64,000 bases of DNA, from the NCBI GenBank assembly GCA_964538435.1, contig CAZIDX010000002.1, positions 41,566 to 105,565 on the forward strand, given 5' to 3'. The DNA comes from an uncultured Gammaproteobacteria bacterium. Lineage in GTDB: Bacteria; Patescibacteriota; Patescibacteriia; UBA9934; GWF2-40-263. A model generated the notes under the pieces. That model searched no databases. It saw nothing but the letters and a program-made list of their open reading frames with translations, and was not told the DNA's origin. The position numbers and the translations under genes are program-made. Shown here in pieces: positions 5,318 through 57,469 of the stretch; positions within the stretch are counted from its first letter, which is position 1; the number at the start of each line of letters is the position of its first letter.

Positions 5318-5372
5318 ATACTCAATAAATAGCTATGTTTTCTCAATTCAATCAAACGAAAACTTTGAAATA

Positions 5373-5398
5373 GAAAAACCCTGACATTGCTGCCAGGG
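5373..5398 (-). terminator. intrinsic terminator of histidine-phosphatase gene (CCCUGGCAGCAAUGUCAGGG-UUUUUC on minus strand); part of duplicated 33-bp repeat
   Basis: Hairpin ccctg/caggg with T-run, 8 nt after stop codon; near-identical copy at 6319-6344. Confidence 0.6.
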
Positions 5399-5406
5399 CC
5401 GTGTGA

Positions 5407-6216: not shown

Positions 6217-6266
6217 TTGAGAGATACCATATAAGTACCGATCGGCACTTATATGGTATCTCTCAA
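6217..6266. promoter_or_regulatory. 50-bp near-perfect palindrome (20-bp perfect arms ttgagagataccatataagt / acttatatggtatctctcaa around ccgatcgg core) upstream of the histidine phosphatase gene
   Basis: Read directly; right arm abuts a minus-strand TTGACG -35-like hexamer; candidate operator. Confidence 0.4.
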
Positions 6267-6318
6267 AATACTCAATAAACGAAAAATACCTAAACTAGGA
6301 ATTATTGACAGATGAATA

Positions 6319-6344
6319 GAAAAACCCCGACATTGCTGCCAGGG
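6319..6344 (-). terminator. intrinsic terminator of 149-aa GC-rich gene; second copy of 33-bp repeat agaaaaacccYgacattgctgccagggccgtg
   Basis: Near-identical to 5371-5403 (1 mismatch); hairpin + U-run on minus strand. Confidence 0.6.
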
Positions 6345-6354
6345 CCGTGCAGCG

Positions 6355-14193: not shown

Positions 14194-14256
14194 AGCGACT
14201 AGCGTATAGCGATTAGCGATTAGTCTATACGCTATTCGCTAAACGCTCCTCGCTGC
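14194..14256. repeat. 63-bp nine-heptad palindromic element, copy A: (AGCGNNN)x4-AGTCTAT-(NCGCTNN)x4, 3 nt upstream of murE ATG
   Basis: agcgact agcgtat agcgatt agcgatt agtctat acgctat tcgctaa acgctcc tcgctgc; same architecture at 27093-27155 and 30703-30765. Confidence 0.8.
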
Positions 14257-14323
14257 ATTTTTAACATACCCCAAAAAATTTCCAGCATCCTGGACAGCTT
14301 CATTGTACCATGTTTGTTAAATC

Positions 14324-16515: not shown

Positions 16516-17203
16516 ATATCCCTTTAGAATTTTGCCGCTTCTCAAGCTCAACAATACGAGCCTCAAATCCTCCAAGGAGCTGTCGCGCAACCCCAACCAT
16601 CTCAACAACAGCACCTGAATCGAGTTCCTGACCAATAACATGCTCCAAAGAATCCGCAACACGACCAAGATAAATGCTTGCCAGCTTATACTCTGCAATA
16701 GCCATATCAACCCCCAACGCATCACCCCTTAGCTCCTCAAGGATAGCCACCGAGAGTTTAATGGGAACCAAATTTACATTCGCATACACACAAAACATCT
16801 CTCGAGATCGCACGTTTTCATGCTCATACTTTCTATGCGCAAACGCATAAACCTTCCGCGCCCATGCGCGCGCATGCTGATACAAGGGCTGACGACTCAC
16901 TTCTTTTCGAAAAAGTAAAAGAGATGCTTCATCTGGTTCTTCTCGCTGCTCTGAATCTGTAAACATCTTTTGATTTCCAAACAAAAAAACGTCTCGTTCA
17001 AAAACGTTTTTTAATGACTGATCAAACAACTCTTCAGTTTGAAGCTGCTCTTGAAGAACCTCTTGCTCCATGGTGAGCCGACCATCCAAAGGAACATCGT
17101 GACGCTCAAAAAGATCCTCGATATGATCCTCGAGTAAATCAACCTCATCTCTATAAAACACCCAAGGGTAATCACCGTCACCAGTGGTCATATTATTTAT
17201 CAC
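16502..17203 (-). CDS. hypothetical acidic protein (233 aa)
   Basis: Long ORF, coding-like composition; no motif recognised. Confidence 0.4.
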   Translation of the reverse strand: MINNMTTGDGDYPWVFYRDEVDLLEDHIEDLFERHDVPLDGRLTMEQEVLQEQLQTEELFDQSLKNVFERDVFLFGNQKMFTDSEQREEPDEASLLLFRKEVSRQPLYQHARAWARKVYAFAHRKYEHENVRSREMFCVYANVNLVPIKLSVAILEELRGDALGVDMAIAEYKLASIYLGRVADSLEHVIGQELDSGAVVEMVGVARQLLGGFEARIVELEKRQNSKGIYGAA

Positions 17204-17768
17204 GTAGCGAGAGATCGTACACCATCTCTTCTAGCCTTCGGTAATTCTTTTTTGCTTGGTCAAACTTTGTTCGAAGGTATCCGGTCAAATCCATGTCTAG
17301 CAAAAACTCAATCACCATTGCCACAACCTCACGCGCCTCATGCACGGCCTTTGTATCACCCTGAGTCACACGCTTCATAGCATAACGCACAATCTCACCA
17401 GTTGTGTCAGAGAGTCCACCAAGATAGATCCCTGGCTCCATAGCACGCTCATCAATCGCACCAAGCTTACGTGTGGTCATGTAGCTATAAAAAAGCGCAG
17501 CCTCAGCATACTCTTCAAGTGCAGCCTTGTACGCACCCTCATATTTTAGATCCGGAAATTTCTTGAACTTCTTTTCAATAAGAGCAAAGACAGCAACCGC
17601 TTCCTTTAAGAGCTTTTCTGATCCTGAAATATCATCACGATGAAGAGCAAAAATTGCACGCTTTGATCGGCTAAGAGCCTCGTTTGAACGACCAATAAGA
17701 TCACGACGCTCCTTCTCCCGAGTTGAGTGTCGTTTCTTTAGCCTTGAAAAAATTGCTGGAGTTTTCAT
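17193..17768 (-). CDS. hypothetical all-helical protein (191 aa)
   Basis: Overlaps neighbours by ATGA-type overlaps suggesting operon with 16502-17203 and small ORF. Confidence 0.4.
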   Translation of the reverse strand: MKTPAIFSRLKKRHSTREKERRDLIGRSNEALSRSKRAIFALHRDDISGSEKLLKEAVAVFALIEKKFKKFPDLKYEGAYKAALEEYAEAALFYSYMTTRKLGAIDERAMEPGIYLGGLSDTTGEIVRYAMKRVTQGDTKAVHEAREVVAMVIEFLLDMDLTGYLRTKFDQAKKNYRRLEEMVYDLSLRDK

Positions 17769-17914: not shown

Positions 17915-17977
17915 AAGCAGGTAGTAGATGAATTAAAAATCCTCTCCCCTCTCACTAGAGAAAACTCTAAACAGCCG

Positions 17978-18076
17978 CCCAGGCCGCCAAACGGCCATTC
18001 GAGGTCGTAGGTTAAAAACATTTACAACGAGTTTTTAAACTACGACCTCGTGGCCGCCCCAAGCCCCCACAGCAAG
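17978..18076. repeat. 99-bp structured intergenic element, copy 1 (flanks cccaggccgccaaacggcc ... gtggccgccccaagcccccacagcaag around a 19-bp-stem hairpin)
   Basis: Near-identical architecture with compensatory stem changes at 37930-38028; diverged copy 39303-39416; lies 4 nt past ATPase stop codon. Confidence 0.75.
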
Positions 18077-18079
18077 AGC

Positions 18080-20719
18080 TTATTTATGTTTTCGTAAAAT
18101 CAACAACTCTTTACCAAATTCAATAATCACAACCTTGATTAACCCCATAATAAGCAAGAGGCCCCACATATGCAAACCAAGCGGCACAATCTCGAACACT
18201 CTCTGCAACAGCGGAACAGTTGTTGCTGCAATCATCATTACAAACCCAATCGACACACCACCAATGAGCCAAAGGTTCGAAAATGGGTTAACTCTAAAAA
18301 TGCTTTTTCTAAATGTTCTTGTGGAGAACACATAGAAAAGCGTATCAATCCCCACAGCAACAAACATAATTGATCGAACGGCCTCTTCTGAGCGTTCTGT
18401 TGAGAGAAGCCAGAAAAAGAGCCCCAACAAAAACACATTCGCCACCACCGCAATCAACCCAATCATTTTAATCATGTCACGATTAAGCACACGCTCCTCT
18501 CGCTTACGAGGCTTGAGCCCCATAACATCCTGCTCTTTCTTTTCAAGCGCAAGTCCAATATGCGGAAAACTGTCAGCAAAGAAATTGATCCAAAGAATCT
18601 GAACAGGTAAAAGCGGTGCAGGAAGACCGGCCAGCATGGCAAATCCAATCAGGAACACTTCCGTAAAACTCCCAGCAATCAAATACACAGCCACCTTACG
18701 AATATTGTCAAAAATCACACGCCCCTCCTCAATCGCTGCGGAAATCGTTCCCAGATCATTATTCAGAATCACCACATCAGACGCTTGCTTTGCCACATCT
18801 GTTCCTGACCCAACCGCAATACCAATATCCGATGCTTTCAAAGCTGGTGCATCATTCACCCCATCACCTGTCATGGCCACAACCTCACCTCGTGCCTGCC
18901 ACGCTTTCACAATTCGAATCTTATGCCGAGGTTCCACGCGCGCATAAATCGATATCTTTGCCACCTGCTTCTTAAGATCTTCATCAGACCATGAATCAAG
19001 ATCTGTCCCCACTACCACACTTTCTTTGTCTGCATGAAGGCCTGCCTCAGCACCAATGGCACGTGCCGTTTCAGGATGATCACCTGTGATGATCACTGTG
19101 CGCACACCCGCCCGCTTTGCTGCCTTGATCTGCTGCTTTGCCTCTGCACGGAGCGGATCCCGAAGCCCAACAAATCCAAGAAAGGTGAAACCTCTTAGCT
19201 TATCCTTGTGAATAACATCTCCTTTTTCAACATCCTCTAAAACGGCAAGCGCAATAATCCGAAGCCCTTTTTGCGTTGCCTTAAGCACGCGCTTCTCCCA
19301 CTCTGCCTTTTTCTTTGCATCAAGCTTTACTGTTTTCTCTCCTCTTTGCACAAACGAACACATCTCAAACACCTTTCCAGGTGCCCCTTTCACAAACAAC
19401 GCCTGCGCATTCCCCCACTCATGCTTTGTCACCATGTACTTCCACGCAGAATCAAACGGAATCTCAGCAACACGCTTATGCGCCTTCTGCAGCGCATCAA
19501 GATCCATGTGCGTATCAAGCACACTGTGCATAAGCGCAGCCTCAGTTGGGCTCCCCTTCACCTCAACCTCTTCACCCTCAACAACGATTGCGTCATTACA
19601 AAGCCCGCTTATCTCAAACATCTTCCAAACAACACCATCCTCAGATCGATAAGCCTCTTCAATCGTAAATGTCTCATTAGCTGTCTCAACATCAGTAACC
19701 CGCATCTCCCCCTCAGTAATCGTCCCTGTTTTGTCTGAACAAAGAACAGACACGCTTCCAAGCGTCTCAGCTCCAACCAAACGTCGCACAAGCGACCGAC
19801 GCTTGAGAATCCTTTGCATTCCAATTGCCAAAATGATCGTCACAGACACGAGAAGTCCTTCTGGGATCGCTGCAACCGCAAGTGCAACACTCATTTCAAA
19901 CATGTGCACAAATGACTCTCCTCGAAACAAACCAAACGCAAACAAAACAAAGATGATCCCAGCAACTACGCCAGAAATCCACTTTGCAAGCACAGCAAGC
20001 TGCTCCTGAAGCGGCGTCTGTGTCTCATCGGTTTCCTGCACCATGCTAGAAATCTTCCCAAGTTCCGTCTTGAGCCCTGTCTCCACCACAACCGCTAAAC
20101 CACGACCACCTGTCACAACCGTCCCGGCATAAACCATGTTCTTGCGCTCGGCAAGCAAGGCACCCTCATTCAATTCTTCTGTGATCTTCTTGATCGGCAT
20201 GGACTCACCCGTAAGCGCAGCCTCATTCATGACAAGATCATGCGTTTCAAGCATGCGCGCATCAGCTGAAATTCTATTCCCTGTTCGAAGCACAAGAACA
20301 TCTCCAGGAACCAATTCCTTTGCACTCACCACAGTCTCTCGACCCTCTCGAACAACCGTTGCCTCAGGCTGCACAAGCGATCGTAAATGCTCAAGCGCCT
20401 GATTGGCTTTAAATTCCTGAATGAATCCAATAGCTGTGTTTACCACAACAGCTGCCCCAATCACCCAAGCATCCACCCACTCACCAAGCAAAGCACTGAT
20501 CACAGCCGCAGCAACAAGCACGTAGATAAGCGGAGAGGTAAACTGGTGAAGCAAAACAAGCCACCAAGGATCACTCTTTTTATGCGGAAGCTCATTCCTC
20601 CCATGTATCCCAATCCTTCTTTCCACAGTCGAGCCAGAAAGGCCCTCCATATCAACAGAGAGCGTCTTTAAAGCGTCTTCAGTTGTCTTTGCATGCCAAG
20701 TAGCCATGTAAAATCTCAT
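18080..20719 (-). CDS. P-type cation-transporting ATPase (type II, Ca/Mg-like)
   Basis: DKTGTITEGEM phosphorylation motif, TGDGVNDAPALK, GDHPETA, 10 predicted TMs. Confidence 0.9.
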   Translation of the reverse strand: MRFYMATWHAKTTEDALKTLSVDMEGLSGSTVERRIGIHGRNELPHKKSDPWWLVLLHQFTSPLIYVLVAAAVISALLGEWVDAWVIGAAVVVNTAIGFIQEFKANQALEHLRSLVQPEATVVREGRETVVSAKELVPGDVLVLRTGNRISADARMLETHDLVMNEAALTGESMPIKKITEELNEGALLAERKNMVYAGTVVTGGRGLAVVVETGLKTELGKISSMVQETDETQTPLQEQLAVLAKWISGVVAGIIFVLFAFGLFRGESFVHMFEMSVALAVAAIPEGLLVSVTIILAIGMQRILKRRSLVRRLVGAETLGSVSVLCSDKTGTITEGEMRVTDVETANETFTIEEAYRSEDGVVWKMFEISGLCNDAIVVEGEEVEVKGSPTEAALMHSVLDTHMDLDALQKAHKRVAEIPFDSAWKYMVTKHEWGNAQALFVKGAPGKVFEMCSFVQRGEKTVKLDAKKKAEWEKRVLKATQKGLRIIALAVLEDVEKGDVIHKDKLRGFTFLGFVGLRDPLRAEAKQQIKAAKRAGVRTVIITGDHPETARAIGAEAGLHADKESVVVGTDLDSWSDEDLKKQVAKISIYARVEPRHKIRIVKAWQARGEVVAMTGDGVNDAPALKASDIGIAVGSGTDVAKQASDVVILNNDLGTISAAIEEGRVIFDNIRKVAVYLIAGSFTEVFLIGFAMLAGLPAPLLPVQILWINFFADSFPHIGLALEKKEQDVMGLKPRKREERVLNRDMIKMIGLIAVVANVFLLGLFFWLLSTERSEEAVRSIMFVAVGIDTLFYVFSTRTFRKSIFRVNPFSNLWLIGGVSIGFVMMIAATTVPLLQRVFEIVPLGLHMWGLLLIMGLIKVVIIEFGKELLILRKHK

Positions 20720-20726
20720 TTAGGAT

Positions 20727-20792
20727 GATTCTTGAGTGCTTGCTCTCTCAAAACCATCCGGTTGGTTTTGAAGAGCAAGTGCTCGAATCATC
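20727..20792. terminator. long imperfect hairpin (about 28-bp arms) between GT4 stop and ATPase start; apex ctctctcaaaacc...ggttttgaagag
   Basis: Read directly; apex shared with hairpin at 39345-39385. Confidence 0.4.
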
Positions 20793-20805
20793 CGTTAAAT
20801 ACGTA

Positions 20806-22545: not shown

Positions 22546-22827
22546 ATGGAAGGAGTATGTGTTGCCTGCGGCGCAGGTGAAGTCGAACTAAACGACGAGA
22601 CCAAGTGCCCAGGATGTGTAGCACCTGCTGCACCAACTGAAGCCCCAGTTGAGGCTCCAGTCGAGGAAGCTCCAGCAGCCCCAGAGGTTGTTGAAGCTCC
22701 AGTTGAAGCTACTGAGGCTCCTGCAGAGGAACCTGTAGTTGAGGAAGCTCCTGTAGAAGCTCCAGCAGAGCCAGTTGAGGCTCCAGCCGAAGCACCTGCA
22801 GAAGAAGAGGTTCCACCTGCTGTTTAA
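22546..22827 (+). CDS. small zinc-ribbon protein (CxxC...CxxC) with Ala/Pro/Glu/Val-rich repetitive tail
   Basis: MEGVCVACG...CPGC then (APxEAPVE)-like repeats; SD GGAAGGAG overlaps start. Confidence 0.45.
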   Translation: MEGVCVACGAGEVELNDETKCPGCVAPAAPTEAPVEAPVEEAPAAPEVVEAPVEATEAPAEEPVVEEAPVEAPAEPVEAPAEAPAEEEVPPAV

Positions 22828-22873
22828 TTACAGAAAGCAAAACACCCAGCGCAAGCTAGGTGTTTTTCTTTTT

Positions 22874-33889: not shown

Positions 33890-33940
33890 CTCTCCAACCT
33901 CGTCCTCGGACGGGGTTTTCAAATACAAACAGGAGTGAAA

Positions 33941-34028
33941 CTGTAACGTGAAATAAAAAAACAAGGTGGTGGTCGTCTATATCGCGAGACGGCCCGGCTC
34001 CGCCTTGTTTTTTTATTTCACGTTACAG
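33941..34028. repeat. 88-bp palindromic element: perfect 26-bp inverted arms (ctgtaacgtgaaataaaaaaacaagg / ccttgtttttttatttcacgttacag) around 36-bp GC-rich spacer with inner hairpin; probable bidirectional terminator
   Basis: Arms verified by reverse-complement; lies between convergent genes. Confidence 0.7.
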
Positions 34029-37863: not shown

Positions 37864-37873
37864 CGCACCAACC

Positions 37874-37907
37874 AAAAATGAGAAGGCTCGATGCCTTCTC
37901 ATTTTTA
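37874..37907. terminator. bidirectional terminator aaaaatgagaaggc-tcgat-gccttctcattttt
   Basis: Read directly; same TCGAT-loop architecture as 39265-39295. Confidence 0.6.
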
Positions 37908-37929
37908 AATTCCACCACCCCACCATAGA

Positions 37930-38028
37930 CCCAGGACGCCAAACGGCCGTTCGAGGTAGTAGTTGAAAAGCATTTACAGCGAGTTTTTCAACTACTACCT
38001 CGTGGCCGCCCTAAGCCCCCACAGCAAG
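37930..38028. repeat. 99-bp structured intergenic element, copy 2
   Basis: Same length and flanks as copy 1; stem gaggtagtagttgaaaagc/gtttttcaactactacctc with compensatory substitutions relative to copy 1; ends 8 nt before lipoprotein stop codon. Confidence 0.75.
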
Positions 38029-38035
38029 CTTCGAG

Positions 38036-38614
38036 CTAAAAGCGCAACGTATCCAAAACTCGCTCAAACGTTATCGACTCTCTCTGATGACTTATCACAA
38101 ACACCTTCTCACCATACTGAAACACCACAAGCTTATCCGGAGAATCATCTTCCCCTGTACCACGAATCACAATCGAACTCTCTCCAGCAAACTCCCCAAT
38201 CGTCTGCCCACCAACCCCCTCAGGATAATACGCATCCAAATTCAGTGTCACCCACTCATGCGCTGACCGAGCCTCAACAACCATAATCGTGAGCACATTC
38301 ACTTCGCTATCAACAAGCTCAGACGCATTCGCATCTGTAATGCGGATCACATCCGCATCCTCATCAGGAGTAAGAATATACGACTGCTCCCCAACCTGAG
38401 CCACCTCTCGATAAAGGATAGCCTCAGCCGGATACGAAACCTCGTATCCATATTTTATATTCACATACGTCTCCCAACTAGCCGGAACTTCCATTCCCTC
38501 CTCAACCACACTCTCACCCCCCTGCTCTCGCACAACCTGCTCAATCTCAAAAACCCCACATCCTGGAAGAATGAGGAGAAAACAGGCCAAACTGAGTAAA
38601 ACAAGCCGTTTCAT
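38036..38614 (-). CDS. lipoprotein (start MKRLVLLSLACFLLILPGC, lipobox LPGC); ORF-track extension to 38845 unlikely
   Basis: Signal peptide with lipobox; extension would overlap promoter/start of divergent gene. Confidence 0.5.
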   Translation of the reverse strand: MKRLVLLSLACFLLILPGCGVFEIEQVVREQGGESVVEEGMEVPASWETYVNIKYGYEVSYPAEAILYREVAQVGEQSYILTPDEDADVIRITDANASELVDSEVNVLTIMVVEARSAHEWVTLNLDAYYPEGVGGQTIGEFAGESSIVIRGTGEDDSPDKLVVFQYGEKVFVISHQRESITFERVLDTLRF

Positions 38615-38707
38615 ATCAAGCGGATTATACCATGATCGCTTGACTTTTTGTGCGAGAAGTAGTAGATTCAAACGTCTTCCCATGACGGGAAACAAAGGAG
38701 AACCTCG

Positions 38708-39190
38708 ATGCTGCTCAGCATCATCCTCGCCCTCGCCCTGCTCGTCTCCCCAGTCAACGCTGAGGACGTCATTCTGGAGAGGGCCGACATCATCGCGTAC
38801 CACGAGGTAGACCGCGAGATCCGCCACCTGGCCCACGAGCTTCACGAGCTCGAGACCTGCAAGACCGAGGTGCCGAACATCAGCATCACGGTCGAGACAG
38901 CCAAGGACCCGATCGAAGCTGTCCAGGCGCTCTACATCAACGTGGACACTTGCGAGCTCATGGCTCGCAACGCCAAGGAGGTCGCCTACCTGAGTATGAT
39001 GGTTCTCGTGGCCGAATCACAGCGCATCCCAGATGAACGCGCTGCCGAGCGCGAGTCCATGAACGAGAGCATCACGCAGATCGAGTTCGAGTGGAAACAC
39101 TTCATGGCCGAGGAAGCCATGTTCCAGGACTTCAAGGCCTTCATGGTCATGCTCCTGATCGGCTCTGAGCAGTGGCGTCGCTCGCCCTGA
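38708..39190 (+). CDS. GC-rich secreted hypothetical protein (160 aa)
   Basis: Signal peptide MLLSIILALALLVSPVNA; high G+C; promoter TTGACT-N17-TAGATT and SD AAGGAG upstream; terminator ccccagcc-gcua-ggccgggg-UUUUCGAAUU at 39213-39240. Confidence 0.5.
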   Translation: MLLSIILALALLVSPVNAEDVILERADIIAYHEVDREIRHLAHELHELETCKTEVPNISITVETAKDPIEAVQALYINVDTCELMARNAKEVAYLSMMVLVAESQRIPDERAAERESMNESITQIEFEWKHFMAEEAMFQDFKAFMVMLLIGSEQWRRSP

Positions 39191-39264
39191 TCACCTCTCC
39201 GACACGTACAAGCCCCAGCCGCTAGGCCGGGGTTTTCGAATTATCTAACCCTCCTGGAGAGGAC

Positions 39265-39295
39265 AAAAAGAGAACACTCGATGTGTTCTCTTTTT
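39265..39295. terminator. second hairpin aaaaagagaacac-tcgat-gtgttctcttttt
   Basis: Read directly. Confidence 0.5.
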
Positions 39296-39302
39296 GAAAC
39301 AT

Positions 39303-39416
39303 CTCCACCACCCCTGGTAAGGACAGGTTGGGTACCGGCCGTTGCGACGTTTCTCTCTCAAAACCTGTGTGTTTTGAAGAGAAATGTCGCCGGCCGTCAC
39401 AAGCTTACGTAGCAAG
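39303..39416. repeat. diverged copy 3 of the structured intergenic element (tccaccacccc...ggccgtt-hairpin-ccggccg...cacaagctt)
   Basis: Shares flank motifs with copy 2 (tccaccacccc, ggccgtt(c/g)cga(g/c)g, cac(a)agcaag) but different 18-bp stem; ends 3 nt before SOD stop codon. Confidence 0.6.
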
Positions 39417-39418
39417 AA

Positions 39419-40003
39419 CTATTTCATCTGCTCAAGCACAAACCCCCAATTCACATACTCCCAAAAACCATCAATAAACTTCCCTCTATCATTTCTATGA
39501 TCAATATAATAAGCATGCTCCCATACATCGAGCGTCAAGAGAGGCTTATCTGAAGTCTCAGCCGGTGTGTCAGCATCATGATAATCCTGAATCGACAACT
39601 TCCCATCACTGTCCATAAGAAGCCAAACCCAACCAGATCCAAAATGCTTGAGTGCCAATGCACCAAACTCCTCCTTAAACTTCTCAAACGAACCAAAATC
39701 TCGATTAATAAACTCTCCCAGCTGCCCAGAAGGCTCTTGTTTTTCAGATGATAAGCAATTCCAAAAGAAACTGTGATTAAAGTGCTGCGCAGCCAGATTG
39801 TAAAGCGCTGAATTTGAACGCCTTGCAGCCACAATCACCTCTTCAACTGTTTTCTCTCTTAAATCAGTCGATTCAAGTGCGGCATTAAGCTTATTAACAT
39901 AGCCAGCATGATGCTTGCCATGGTGATATTCCAATGTTTCTGCAGATGCCCAAGGTGCCAATGAACCCTTTTCAAACAGCAGGTCAGGTAAGATATGTGC
40001 CAT
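39419..40003 (-). CDS. sodA: Fe/Mn superoxide dismutase
   Basis: HHGKHH, metal ligands, DVWEHAYY motif. Confidence 0.85.
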   Translation of the reverse strand: MAHILPDLLFEKGSLAPWASAETLEYHHGKHHAGYVNKLNAALESTDLREKTVEEVIVAARRSNSALYNLAAQHFNHSFFWNCLSSEKQEPSGQLGEFINRDFGSFEKFKEEFGALALKHFGSGWVWLLMDSDGKLSIQDYHDADTPAETSDKPLLTLDVWEHAYYIDHRNDRGKFIDGFWEYVNWGFVLEQMK

Positions 40004-40060
40004 ATTTGTTGTTATTATTGATAAACACACTCTATCAGAGCTGAGGCCCCCCTACCAGGG

Positions 40061-55286: not shown

Positions 55287-55315
55287 ATTGACAAACCTTG
55301 AATTAAGTGCTAATT
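55287..55315 (+). promoter_or_regulatory. candidate promoter TTGACA-N17-TAATTT for GC-rich operon
   Basis: Read directly; about 100-nt leader then SD AGAGG. Confidence 0.4.
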
Positions 55316-55417
55316 TCGGCGGCTGTAACCAACCGGAATACAGAAGCCAAAACAAGAAGTTACTTAGCAACCCTCGCCCTTTCCCAAACCAACCCTAGAC
55401 CAAGAGGTAGAGGCCCC

Positions 55418-56266
55418 ATGCCAACCATGGACATTCAAGGCCCCGAGCACGTCTACACGGTCACGCACCGCGTGGGCGAGTGCAGCCACTACCGTCTCTA
55501 CACGTGTCTCCAACAGGACACAGACCGGCAGTGCATCATGATGATCGCGGCCGAGCGTCGCAACAACGCAGACCTCGAGCGCGCCGCGTACCTCCTCAAG
55601 CAACTCCGCAAGGAAGGCGACCTCAACGAGGAAGACTACGCCAAGGATCCCAAGAACGAAGGTCGTATGCTCAACTACCAGCTCGGCTTCCCCGAGGTGA
55701 TGGACAGCTTCATCTTCGAAGAGCAGGATCACCGGCGCATCCTCATCCTGGCGTTCGACAACATCCAGGAGATCGACGGCCTGGTCCCCCTCCTGAACAT
55801 TCGGGAGAAGGACCTCAAGCGCCTCGACATCAAGACCGGCGCGTGGATCCTGGGCAAGGCCCTCAAGACCCTCAAGCTAGCGCACAGCATCGGGATCTCC
55901 ATGGGTACCATGGATGCCTCCCGCATCCTGGTCCAGCTCGACGAGCACTACGTGATCATGTTCGACTGGTGCTACGCCAGGACCGGCACAGACCAGGTCC
56001 CGAGAGACCTGGCACGCCGCGACATCATGAACGTAGCCCGCGCCGTCATCACTGCCTTGGGCGGAGACTGGCGCAGCCGTCACCTCCCCTTCCCCGGCAA
56101 CGAGGAAGGGTACGGCAGGTTCACCGAAATCCTCTTCCGACTCGCTGGCGGAGCACAGACCAGCGCAGCCATGGCTCACCAGACGTTCTACGAGATGGTA
56201 GACGCGGCCTGGGAGCCTGGCTTTCACCCCGCAACCACCCACCCTCTCGAAAAGACAGGAGATTGA
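55418..56266 (+). CDS. protein-kinase-fold protein, probably pseudokinase/atypical kinase; GC-rich
   Basis: LAHSIGISMGTMDASRILV aligns to LHSxGIVHRDLKPSNILV (HRD degenerate), IMFDWCYAR to DFG region, alphaC-like LERAAYLLKQL. Confidence 0.45.
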   Translation: MPTMDIQGPEHVYTVTHRVGECSHYRLYTCLQQDTDRQCIMMIAAERRNNADLERAAYLLKQLRKEGDLNEEDYAKDPKNEGRMLNYQLGFPEVMDSFIFEEQDHRRILILAFDNIQEIDGLVPLLNIREKDLKRLDIKTGAWILGKALKTLKLAHSIGISMGTMDASRILVQLDEHYVIMFDWCYARTGTDQVPRDLARRDIMNVARAVITALGGDWRSRHLPFPGNEEGYGRFTEILFRLAGGAQTSAAMAHQTFYEMVDAAWEPGFHPATTHPLEKTGD

Positions 56267-56268
56267 TC

Positions 56269-57438
56269 ATGGGACGAGGAGTTCTCTCACGAGTAGCACA
56301 CACCAGGACGCGTGACACCGCCACCCGCGGAGGTCGCAGCGCCACCCACCGGGCCGAAGAGCGCGTGCGCATGGGCAAGGGACTCGACGTGTCCGTGGAC
56401 CCCAAGGGGTACCCGCACCTGGGTCCGGTCCGGCTCAGCCTGCCGCGCTTCGACCAGCGTGAAGACGGTCTCTGGGAGCTCACCAGCGGCATGCCCGTCC
56501 CGGTGGAGACCCTGCTCGACGGTACCGGTTCCATGGGGCACGATTTCATCGCCGCCGTCATGGCCGTCCTGCCCGACGCGTTCGATGCGTTCACCTCCGG
56601 AACCATGCCGGTGCTGGGGCGCTACGACGTGCAGATCGCCAACGCCATCTTCGGCGACACGGTCGACACCCACAACGGGCGTCACGTGCTGTGCCGGACC
56701 CAGTTCGAGATGGCCGACAAGATCTCGGTCCAGGTCACGAACCTGGCCCCGACGCACGGTGGTGCCGGCAACGGCAAGGAAGACCCCCAGTTCGGGCTCT
56801 TCGCGGCCGCCTACCTGACCAACGCCAGGCTCTGGAAGTACGGTCTGCGCGGCTACCACTTCGTCTTCACCGACGACAACTCGGTGATGGAGGTCGAGGT
56901 GAGCTGGCTGAAGCGCATCTTCGGGGATGACGTCCTCGAGCGTGCGTGCGAGAACGGCCACGACTTCTCCGGTGTGCGCAGCATCCCGACCCAGCAGGTC
57001 GTGCAGGATCTGCTGAGCCACACCAACGCCTTCGTCTTCCTGCGGCAGGGCAACAGCATCCGCTCCTGGCAGCGCCTCTACGGCAACGACCGCTGCATCG
57101 TCATGGACGACATGCCCGACACCTTCCACCTCTACGAGGCCGTGGTGATCGGGCTGACCGAGGGCATCATCAACCTGGAGACGGCCGAGACCTTCCTGAT
57201 CGAGCACGGCGCCGACCAGCGCCAGGCCCAGCGCATCGTGCACGCGGTCTCGCACATCCCCCTGGGCGCCCAGACCCTGCGCGAGAACTTCCACCGGATC
57301 CCGGTCGCCGGCGATCTGTTCCGCGAGAAGACCGACCTCTGGCCCCTCACCGCGGACGAGATCGCTGCGCACACCGGCGAGGCCTCGGACGGCGCCAGCG
57401 GCTCCAGCGAGGGTAGCGACAAGGTCCAGTGGCTCTAG
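56269..57438 (+). CDS. PP2C-like (PPM) phosphatase-fold or vWA-like protein; GC-rich
   Basis: LLDGTGSMGHDFIAAV resembles PP2C motif-2 VADGMGGHxAG; QREDG resembles RxxNED; GDTVD resembles GDSR; alternative reading as vWA MIDAS DxTxS. Confidence 0.35.
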   Translation: MGRGVLSRVAHTRTRDTATRGGRSATHRAEERVRMGKGLDVSVDPKGYPHLGPVRLSLPRFDQREDGLWELTSGMPVPVETLLDGTGSMGHDFIAAVMAVLPDAFDAFTSGTMPVLGRYDVQIANAIFGDTVDTHNGRHVLCRTQFEMADKISVQVTNLAPTHGGAGNGKEDPQFGLFAAAYLTNARLWKYGLRGYHFVFTDDNSVMEVEVSWLKRIFGDDVLERACENGHDFSGVRSIPTQQVVQDLLSHTNAFVFLRQGNSIRSWQRLYGNDRCIVMDDMPDTFHLYEAVVIGLTEGIINLETAETFLIEHGADQRQAQRIVHAVSHIPLGAQTLRENFHRIPVAGDLFREKTDLWPLTADEIAAHTGEASDGASGSSEGSDKVQWL

Positions 57439-57469
57439 GGACGAGCTGAATCCAGCTCTACGACAACGA

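Follow-up and report, generated by a model that had tools for sequence, protein, structure and literature searches.

Composite foldback hairpins with exchangeable stems in a Candidatus Uhrbacteria lineage, tentatively read as mobile palindromic repeats

Background

What kind of element keeps its short flanking sequences constant while the long hairpin between them changes on both arms at once? The question is raised by 64,000 nt of DNA from an uncultured bacterium (assembly GCA_964538435.1, contig CAZIDX010000002.1, positions 41,566 to 105,565), a stretch analysed here at its full length and hereafter called the window. An original prediction, made from the letters of this DNA, had described in it a family of structured intergenic elements of about 100 nt that lie just past the stop codons of minus-strand genes, and had proposed for them, among other candidate roles, one in transcript stability or termination within the 3' untranslated region (UTR). 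Homologues of the neighbouring ATPase, superoxide dismutase (SOD) and PGI proteins carry names of Candidatus Uhrbacteria, which belong to the candidate phyla radiation (CPR, or Patescibacteria). CPR genomes are about 1 Mb in size and tightly packed, and no description of interspersed palindromic repeats or of miniature inverted-repeat transposable elements (MITEs) in CPR/Patescibacteria was found in the searchable literature.

We find that the elements are composite units, larger than the 99 nt first described, that fill spacers which are short or differently occupied in relatives, and that their long hairpin is a swappable module which also exists alone. With somewhat more confidence than doubt, we read them as lineage-restricted, non-autonomous mobile foldback repeats of the MITE kind or of the kind known as repetitive extragenic palindromes (REP) and bacterial interspersed mosaic elements (BIME). 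They are most likely palindromic DNA of a selfish or neutral kind and not a new regulatory RNA.

Results

Coordinates refer to the whole window, and the orientation of the copies is read on the C-rich (plus) strand, the flanking genes being on the minus strand. The cores of the three window copies are as follows.

17978-18076, plus strand: core of copy 1, 99 nt; outer helix 17992-17996/18052-18056, A-T pair 17997/18051, TT bulge 17998-17999, inner helix 18000-18019/18031-18050, loop 18020-18030
37930-38028, plus strand: core of copy 2, 99 nt; outer helix 37944-37948/38004-38008, G.T pair 37949/38003, TT bulge 37950-37951, inner helix 37952-37971/37983-38002
39322-39416, plus strand: core of copy 3, with diverged flanks and a hairpin of a different lineage; outer helix 39336-39340/39392-39396, G-C pair 39341/39391, TT bulge 39342-39343, inner helix 39344-39364/39371-39390 with a bulged C and one G.T

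The two 99-nt copies with conserved flanks that had been predicted are 90% identical (10 differences over 99 nt); the window holds exactly two occurrences of each of their flank motifs, and none of 100 shuffles gave two. The third, more diverged copy was confirmed too: it retains CGGCC-GTT ... GGCCG.C..AAGC......AGCAAG framing another stem, and a pattern on the positions common to copies 1-3 finds three matches in the window, all of them copies, and none in shuffles. A covariance model built from the three copies, of the kind that had been suggested for a genome-wide search, was run on the window and scored copy 1 at 116 bits, copy 2 at 115 and copy 3 at 82; nothing else exceeded 32 bits, the remainder being other-strand reads of the same hairpins and a few other hairpins. 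All three copies lie on one strand, 20 kb and 1.3 kb apart, amid syntenic housekeeping genes. An Rfam scan of the whole window at gathering thresholds returned two tRNAs and no family for the copies, and permissive Rfam scans around copies 1-3 raised generic long-hairpin miRNA models alone, at 15-27 bits against thresholds of 49-110.

The closest relative available is assembly FLOH01 (GCA_900089805.1), with 87-88% protein identity and conserved gene order, represented here by loci L013, L020 and L022. Gene order is also conserved in more distant relatives (SOD 73-76%, PGI 74% and ATPase 68% identical), the last of which is locus L024. FLOH01 provided three further copies.

L013 16362-16463, FLOH01: copy 4, 78 bits
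L020 2889-2990, FLOH01, another contig: copy 5, 80 bits
L022 12737-12874, FLOH01: copy 6, with canonical flanks and a much longer, unrelated hairpin

The stems of copies 4 and 5 are identical, with ~220 nt of homology between the two copies, and in general copies resemble each other more within a genome than between genomes. The family thus counts 3 copies in the 64-kb window and 3 in about 47 kb of FLOH01, where a strict pattern finds 2 in the whole assembly. No copy was found in the more distant relatives despite their conserved gene order, and a metagenome scan gave FLOH01 as its only match. Among viral contigs, two pattern scans had no match and a third gave 7 matches which the covariance model rejected, as it did L024; a blastn search of phage genomes was likewise without a match. 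A scan of a genome collection with a pattern fitting copies 1-3 returned 11 chance matches in unrelated GC-rich genomes, none with the hairpin; that pattern demanded AAGC, which the FLOH01 copies lack. The known distribution is this Candidatus Uhrbacteria genome and its closest sequenced relative, FLOH01. In 6 of 6 copies the C-rich strand of the element lies on the C-rich genomic strand, the whole of which is C-rich through a genome-wide skew.

The sites of the copies were compared with their counterparts in relatives, beginning with copy 1.

17933-18079, plus strand: full insert of 147 nt around copy 1, with the ATPase stop codon on one side and a 49-aa open reading frame (ORF) on the other

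The spacer from the ATPase gene to the 49-aa ORF measures 20 nt in L013 and L024 and 167 nt in the window, where it holds copy 1 within the 147-nt insert. TAA flanks this insert on both sides, as it does the insert at 20723 described below; with two cases in an AT-rich context, chance may account for it. In FLOH01, the spacer between PGI and the lipoprotein gene (L022), which copy 2 occupies in the window, contains a different A-run/T-run hairpin and no element, and the spacer of copy 4 has unrelated sequence at its counterpart in the window. Copies 3 and 6 stand in the same place relative to a homologous upstream terminator.

Two observations concern the surroundings of these sites. The conserved 49-aa ORF directly downstream of copy 1 is followed by a Translin-family gene (17193-17768, Pfam E=7e-21), an order kept in relatives without the element. 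At 14195-14260, in the 5' region of the Mur ligase gene, the window has a quasi-palindrome (AGCGAATAGCGTATAG ... CTATACGCTAGTCGCT) exactly where the relative has copy 4, and the terminator and extended -10 promoter (TGGTACAAT) upstream of it are common to both genomes.

The complete unit measures between 147 and about 230 nt. Its parts, in the order in which they follow each other on the C-rich strand, are a short hairpin, the box CCACCACCCC, the flank TCCAGGMCGCCAAACGGCC, the long foldback hairpin and the flank GGCCGCCCYAAGCCCCCACAGCAAG. The parts to the left of the cores of copies 2 and 3 are as follows.

37869-37921, plus strand: left part of the copy 2 unit, with the short hairpin and the CCACCACCCC box at 37912-37921
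39264-39314, plus strand: left part of the copy 3 unit, with the short hairpin at 39264-39296 (TCGAT loop) and the CCACCACCCC box at 39305-39314

The short hairpin keeps its loop (TCGAT, TCAAT or TCGAC) and varies in its stem, which covaries: GAGAACAC/GTGTTCTC in copy 3 corresponds to GAGAAGGC/GCCTTCTC in copy 2. The A-run/TCGAT-loop/T-run hairpins noted earlier before copies 2 and 3 are indeed present, at 37874-37906 and 39264-39296, and each is followed by TCCACCACCCC, a combination specific to them. With its A-run, TCGAT loop and T-run, the copy 2 hairpin has the shape of a bidirectional intrinsic terminator; A5/T5 runs belong to these accessory hairpins of window copies 2 and 3, and the relative's short hairpin is without a T-run. 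Left part and core of copy 2 together occupy the entire 172-nt spacer of the convergent PGI and lipoprotein genes. The copy 1 insert has a degenerate C-rich box (TCCTCTCCCCTCTC, 17940-17953) and no short hairpin. As an exact 10-mer, CCACCACCCC always adjoins a copy where it occurs, in 2 of 2 cases in the window and 3 of 3 in the loci of the relative.

The long hairpin is built of an outer GGCC helix, one purine-pyrimidine (R-Y) pair, a TT bulge in the 5' arm and a near-perfect inner helix of 20-28 bp, with the apex AAAAC...GTTTT in all copies except copy 6. The 5-bp outer helix is invariant among the aligned copies. Complementarity between the conserved flanks extends over only 5-6 bp (CGGCC/GGCCG), the other 14-20 nt on each side not being complementary. 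The units have no conserved ORF and no consistent read-through frame, and a small ORF or a peptide made by stop-codon read-through was accordingly rejected, as frames differ among copies and stops fall within 11-15 codons. A G-quadruplex in the G-rich sense flanks was also dismissed, as it is not conserved and the 5' flank of copy 3 has no G-tracts. No Rfam model of a self-cleaving ribozyme (hammerhead, twister) scored at E<=10; the ribozyme look-alike CUGAUGAG is present in the loop of copies 4 and 5 only, and CCCAAGCCC is merely twister-like.

Foldback hairpins also occur alone, outside the composite unit.

20723-20793, plus strand: solo foldback hairpin, 71 nt, in the glycosyltransferase/ATPase spacer
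33937-34026, plus strand: solo 27-bp foldback hairpin between convergent genes

The first shares the architecture of the long hairpin, with a 9-bp outer helix, a TT bulge, an inner helix with a bulged C and the apex AAAACC/GGTTTT; it fills its spacer, occupies the same site in FLOH01 (L013 9917-9987) and is missing from L024. Because this 68% relative has a 10-nt spacer there, the solo hairpin is itself an insertion. Compared with its FLOH01 ortholog, 10 of 30 pairs differ, always on both sides, with none broken and a U.G wobble kept. The hairpin of copy 3 is homologous to this solo hairpin and its ortholog. In the second solo hairpin, an apex module of ~43 nt (AGGTGGTGGTCGTC...CGGCTCCGCCT) recurs almost unchanged at the apex of the hairpin of copy 6 (L022 12752-12856), while the two hairpins have unrelated outer stems; modules either pass from one hairpin to another or enter hairpin loops as inserts. 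Solo hairpins are palindromic end to end, unlike the composite unit. The long hairpin is therefore a swappable module. A search for targets of its arms as antisense guides found none of at least 13 nt at other loci, and what it showed were the modules shared with solo hairpins.

A further hairpin lies at 6217-6266, in the spacer of two minus-strand genes, with a near-perfect stem of 22 bp, a GATC-centred loop and one A.C on the plus strand, a polarity opposite to that of the family's wobbles. Around it and a histidine-phosphatase gene runs a direct repeat of ~85 nt (5319-5403 and 6267-6349), whose last 35 nt are 97% identical; it includes CCCTGGCAGCAATGTCAGGG, a terminator-like hairpin on the minus strand with T5 behind it.

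Between copies 1 and 2, two stem pairs are doubly compensated (positions 29/67 of the copy, C-G to A-T; 36/60, T-A to G-C), one mismatch is repaired (34/62, G.A to T-A) and two pairs turn into wobbles (41/55 and 20/74, both A-T to G.T). When 10 substitutions were placed at random, 0.2% of the simulations yielded at least two doubly compensated pairs and 0.06% gave a stem with all pairs intact. In a model-based alignment of five copies, 99.2% of the cells of the 25-bp hairpin are paired and 14 of the 20 inner pairs have changed on both sides; this pairing was matched in 0 of 500 shuffles, and no slid register came close. Fourteen tabulated hairpins contain 306 Watson-Crick, 11 G.T, 2 A.C and 4 other pairs. 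On either strand, the folds are more stable than shuffles (z-scores of -4.4 to -7.8 as RNA and -8 to -11 as DNA), and as DNA the long hairpins fold at -22 to -26 kcal/mol.

The compensatory stem changes described originally hence stand as far as the pairing goes, whereas much of the difference of copy 3 is replacement of the hairpin: what is seen is true paired change within a hairpin lineage together with whole-hairpin replacement in a conserved frame. The further step, that covariation means a selected structure, is not proven for an RNA by covariation alone: the stems are near-perfect Watson-Crick on both strands, and template switching during replication can create and repair such stems in single events (PMC8794818).

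As to the two strands, wobbles in the long hairpins read G.T on the C-rich strand in eight cells and A.C in none, amounting to ~5 independent events (two-sided p about 0.06), and the C-rich strand is ~2 kcal/mol more stable in 4 of 4 hairpins. On the sense strand, the GGCC helix could be extended by a C-G and three G.U pairs, and copy 3 has U-A and G-C at two of these.

The position of the copies in transcription units varies. In the window, their upstream neighbours are as follows.

18080-20719, minus strand: P-type ATPase ORF, next to copy 1
38036-38845, minus strand: ORF of a lipobox-bearing protein (lipoprotein), next to copy 2
39419-40030, minus strand: Fe/Mn SOD ORF, next to copy 3

Copies 1, 2 and 3 end 3, 7 and 2 nt from the minus-strand stop codons and so lie just past them, as had been claimed; for the family as a whole the claim fails, since copies 4 and 6 are far from stops. 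Copy 4 lies in a 5' UTR, ~150 nt past the previous stop and after a terminator and an extended -10 promoter, and copy 6 is found ~95 nt past the SOD stop, behind a terminator-like hairpin. The stop adjacency of copies 1-3 arises largely because inserted units fill very short spacers end to end. Contexts thus include the 3' UTR, the space between cistrons, the 5' UTR and the far side of a terminator, the flanking genes are unrelated (ATPase, SOD, lipoprotein, a RecG-like gene and Mur ligase), and no promoter-like site was found on either strand next to any copy.

Assemblies tend to end near these hairpins. Logan contigs of SRR8146440 (L001, L014) stop 37-46 nt into copies 1 and 3, and FLOH01-like contigs (L023; JGI 3300072015) stop 92 and 28 nt past the PGI stop, so that the hairpins seem to break short-read assemblies of these genomes. 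We discounted such breaks as a sign of multi-copy status, as palindromes alone can break de Bruijn assemblies.

Elsewhere in the window, the GC content of 55300-57440 is 64%, against about 47% for the genome; this island is located between an HI0933-like flavoprotein gene and the adenylosuccinate synthetase gene. Its two ORFs (55307-56266 and a second to 57438) have no Pfam or NCBIfam match, and the island is probably horizontally acquired DNA. At 22600-22830, imperfect coding tandem repeats (families D3 and D13) form a stretch rich in Pro, Ala, Glu and Val.

Discussion

The reading as mobile foldback repeats is drawn from several observations taken together: insertion polymorphism, narrow distribution, similarity of copies within a genome, modular mosaics, uniform orientation with respect to GC skew, the lack of a constant position in transcription units and the lack of a promoter. 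Near-perfect Watson-Crick pairing on both strands fits maintenance at the level of DNA. Mechanistically, an enzyme whose gene lies elsewhere might recognise the hairpin, with its fixed bulge and conserved flanks, in single-stranded DNA. Instead of this or besides it, the hairpin could be regenerated by replication template switching or by conversion that acts from arm to arm and from copy to copy; stems would thereby stay perfectly paired as their sequence turns over. The unit would be co-transcribed passively. In copies 1-3, the element leaves no space for a terminator ahead of it and must therefore be transcribed with the upstream gene as part of its 3' UTR or intercistronic RNA. There it would form a stem-loop of -40 to -50 kcal/mol, after which copies 2 and 3 have the short hairpin with its terminator shape. 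Effects on mRNA ends, such as 3' protection, an RNase III site or insulation of convergent genes, would then be a by-product or a secondary co-option and not what the family exists for.

There is also evidence against this reading. A direct Pfam scan of about 40 window ORFs revealed no transposase, RAYT or recombinase, and the precomputed Pfam tables of L001, L013, L014 and L022 list no mobilising gene, which may be located elsewhere in the genome. Terminal inverted repeats are lacking, as the ...CAGCAAG end is not complementary to the short hairpin or box at the other, nor are the flanks complementary to each other, and target-site duplication is only hinted at by the TAA on both sides of two inserts. 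Copy number is low in the DNA examined from both genomes. From their shared position, at least the copy represented by copies 3 and 6 has persisted since the genomes split. Moreover, the 8:0 bias of G.T wobbles to one strand hints at strand-specific selection. Finally, flanks, box, loop motifs and TT bulge are better conserved than the stems, which is the pattern expected of a functional nucleic-acid signal and not of decaying selfish DNA.

These last features leave room for a different view, which we regard as rather unlikely: that the element is no selfish DNA but a hitherto undescribed modular signal maintained by the host, or else serves as substrate for a new system of mobilisation that depends on hairpins. 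It is left open because the frame is kept with both stems replaced, because the wobbles are 8:0 and because modules are common to unrelated loci. The frame, comprising the short-hairpin loop, the CCACCACCCC box, the non-palindromic flanks, the GGCC helix and the two-base bulge, would here present an exchangeable long duplex. Folded on the C-rich strand, either as antisense RNA or as DNA of the transcription template or leading-strand template, this duplex might be read by a CPR enzyme.

A role in RNA would have to act on one of the two strands. On the sense transcript, the long stem-loop could be a cis-acting RNA selected for 3'-end protection, termination or intercistronic processing by RNase III, which we consider possible though unlikely. 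Copies 1-3 begin 2-7 nt past a stop and are therefore transcribed, with the A5-stem-T5 hairpin following in copies 2 and 3; the pairing is strongly preserved, the GGCC helix could be extended on this strand, all copies are co-oriented with neighbouring genes, and the hairpin is a duplex of at least 25 bp, long enough for RNase III. Yet the position in the transcription unit is not conserved, copy 4 being in a 5' UTR and copy 6 behind a terminator-like hairpin, the flanking genes are mutually unrelated, and orthologous genes in relatives manage without the element. Furthermore, all 8 long-hairpin wobbles would be A.C mismatches on the sense strand, and the relative's short hairpin has no T-run. 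A dedicated 3'-UTR function, such as the role in stability or termination proposed originally, is not supported; a 3'-UTR or intercistronic role may still exist as a secondary effect. The wobbles would suit a small RNA of its own, transcribed from the C-rich strand and antisense to the neighbouring genes, which might be regulatory or might load Rho or insulate against read-through and antisense transcription: they are all G.T on that strand, the U.G is kept in both solo-hairpin orthologs, R20-Y74 reads A-U, G.U or G-C, the strand is the more stable one, and the unpaired C-rich boxes resemble Rho-loading or anti-Shine-Dalgarno-like tracts, a resemblance only. Against such an RNA stand the absence of a promoter-like site on the C-rich strand at any copy, the terminator-shaped hairpin that precedes the unit on this strand in copies 2 and 3, the genome-wide skew that makes the whole strand C-rich, and the shrinkage of the eight wobbles to ~5 events; we hold it to be very improbable.

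Alternatively, the hairpin or a cruciform could be a site in DNA for a recombinase or DNA-binding protein that serves transactions of the host and not the element's own spread, recognised in the manner of attC or as single-stranded hairpins with extrahelical bases are in IS200/IS605 and REP. In favour of this, the stems show Watson-Crick pairing whichever strand is read and form good DNA folds, the copies keep one orientation to GC skew, and the succession of outer helix, asymmetric unpaired TT, inner helix and variable apex resembles attC, in which an R box, an unpaired spacer, an L box and a variable terminal structure follow one another. HUH (Y1) enzymes read extrahelical bases, of which the TT bulge is reminiscent. 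The stem base, however, is CGGCC-R-TT-CGAG ... CTCG-Y-GGCCG and not the RYYYAAC ... GTTRRRY pair of attC, for which reason attC was rejected, and the 6-of-7 look-alikes GCCAAAC / GTTTGGC are one site read on opposite strands instead of the element's two ends. Cassette array and integrase are both missing, syntenic housekeeping genes flank the copies, the window yielded no gene for a Y1 or tyrosine recombinase, and the G.T asymmetry favours the strand other than the lagging-strand template inferred from GC skew. We judge such a host-serving site distinctly improbable, and mobile foldback repeats remain the reading that we favour.

If so, the case shows foldback elements invading operon spacers of 10-20 nt in one Uhrbacteria lineage. 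A perfect hairpin draws its two ends together, which may explain how insertions between coupled genes are tolerated. It also holds a caution for the discovery of RNA motifs, as covariation at 14 of 20 pairs can come from module replacement together with maintenance of a palindrome at the DNA level, and selection on an RNA is not its only source. Should a mobilising enzyme or binding protein be found, the frame with its swappable stem would offer a model for structure-specific recognition. Breakage of assemblies at such elements is, in addition, a practical point in recovering CPR genomes from metagenomes.

Among known systems, REP, BIME and REPIN, i.e. repetitive extragenic palindromes and their mosaics, come to mind (PMC3116915; Corneloup et al. 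2021, PMC8266576), and REPINs are an earlier example of mobile repeats that form hairpins (Bertels and Rainey 2011, PMC3116915). As in REP and BIME, the elements are short, extragenic and palindromic with a predicted fold as single-stranded DNA or mRNA, combine palindromic units and non-palindromic motifs into mosaics, are more alike within a genome, and often lie at gene ends or between convergent genes. Unlike REP, they number a handful in the DNA examined instead of tens to hundreds per genome and have a much longer, nearly perfect stem (25-33 bp); neither a RAYT gene (TnpA-REP, Y1 HUH) nor a conserved GTAG-type 5' tetranucleotide was found here, and the flanks, in contrast to the two REPs of a REPIN, do not repeat each other in inverted form.

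Bacterial MITEs and foldback repeats, such as Correia/NEMIS of Neisseria, ERIC, RUP and the Rickettsia palindromic elements, share with our units a non-coding nature, a size of 100-230 bp, several copies per genome, insertion polymorphism among close relatives, co-transcription with neighbours that gives long RNA duplexes, and modular variants. In contrast to MITEs, the composite unit has no terminal inverted repeats, only solo hairpins being fully palindromic; target duplication is at best TAA, no parent insertion sequence is known, and the hairpin sequence is exchangeable inside a conserved frame.

Palindrome-associated elements derived from IS200/IS605 carry two subterminal hairpins that a Y1 HUH transposase reads on single-stranded DNA. 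Our units likewise have two different hairpins near their ends, a conserved extrahelical feature in the TT bulge, no obvious inverted termini or duplication, and a uniform orientation relative to the replication-associated skew; unlike in IS200/IS605, no TnpA or TnpB gene and no conserved target tetra- or pentanucleotide at the junctions were seen, and the wobble asymmetry favours the other strand than the inferred lagging-strand template. With the short hairpin of copies 2 and 3, an A-run, stem and T-run between convergent genes, the unit also includes what looks like an intrinsic bidirectional terminator, whereas the long hairpin has no T-run on either strand. Lastly, the element resembles the attC sites of integrons as a structured site directly after ORFs, homogeneous within a genome, in which an outer helix, an unpaired spacer, an inner helix and a variable apex are kept while the sequence varies; in place of R''/R' consensus boxes, a cassette array and an integrase, it has fixed, syntenic housekeeping genes as its neighbours.

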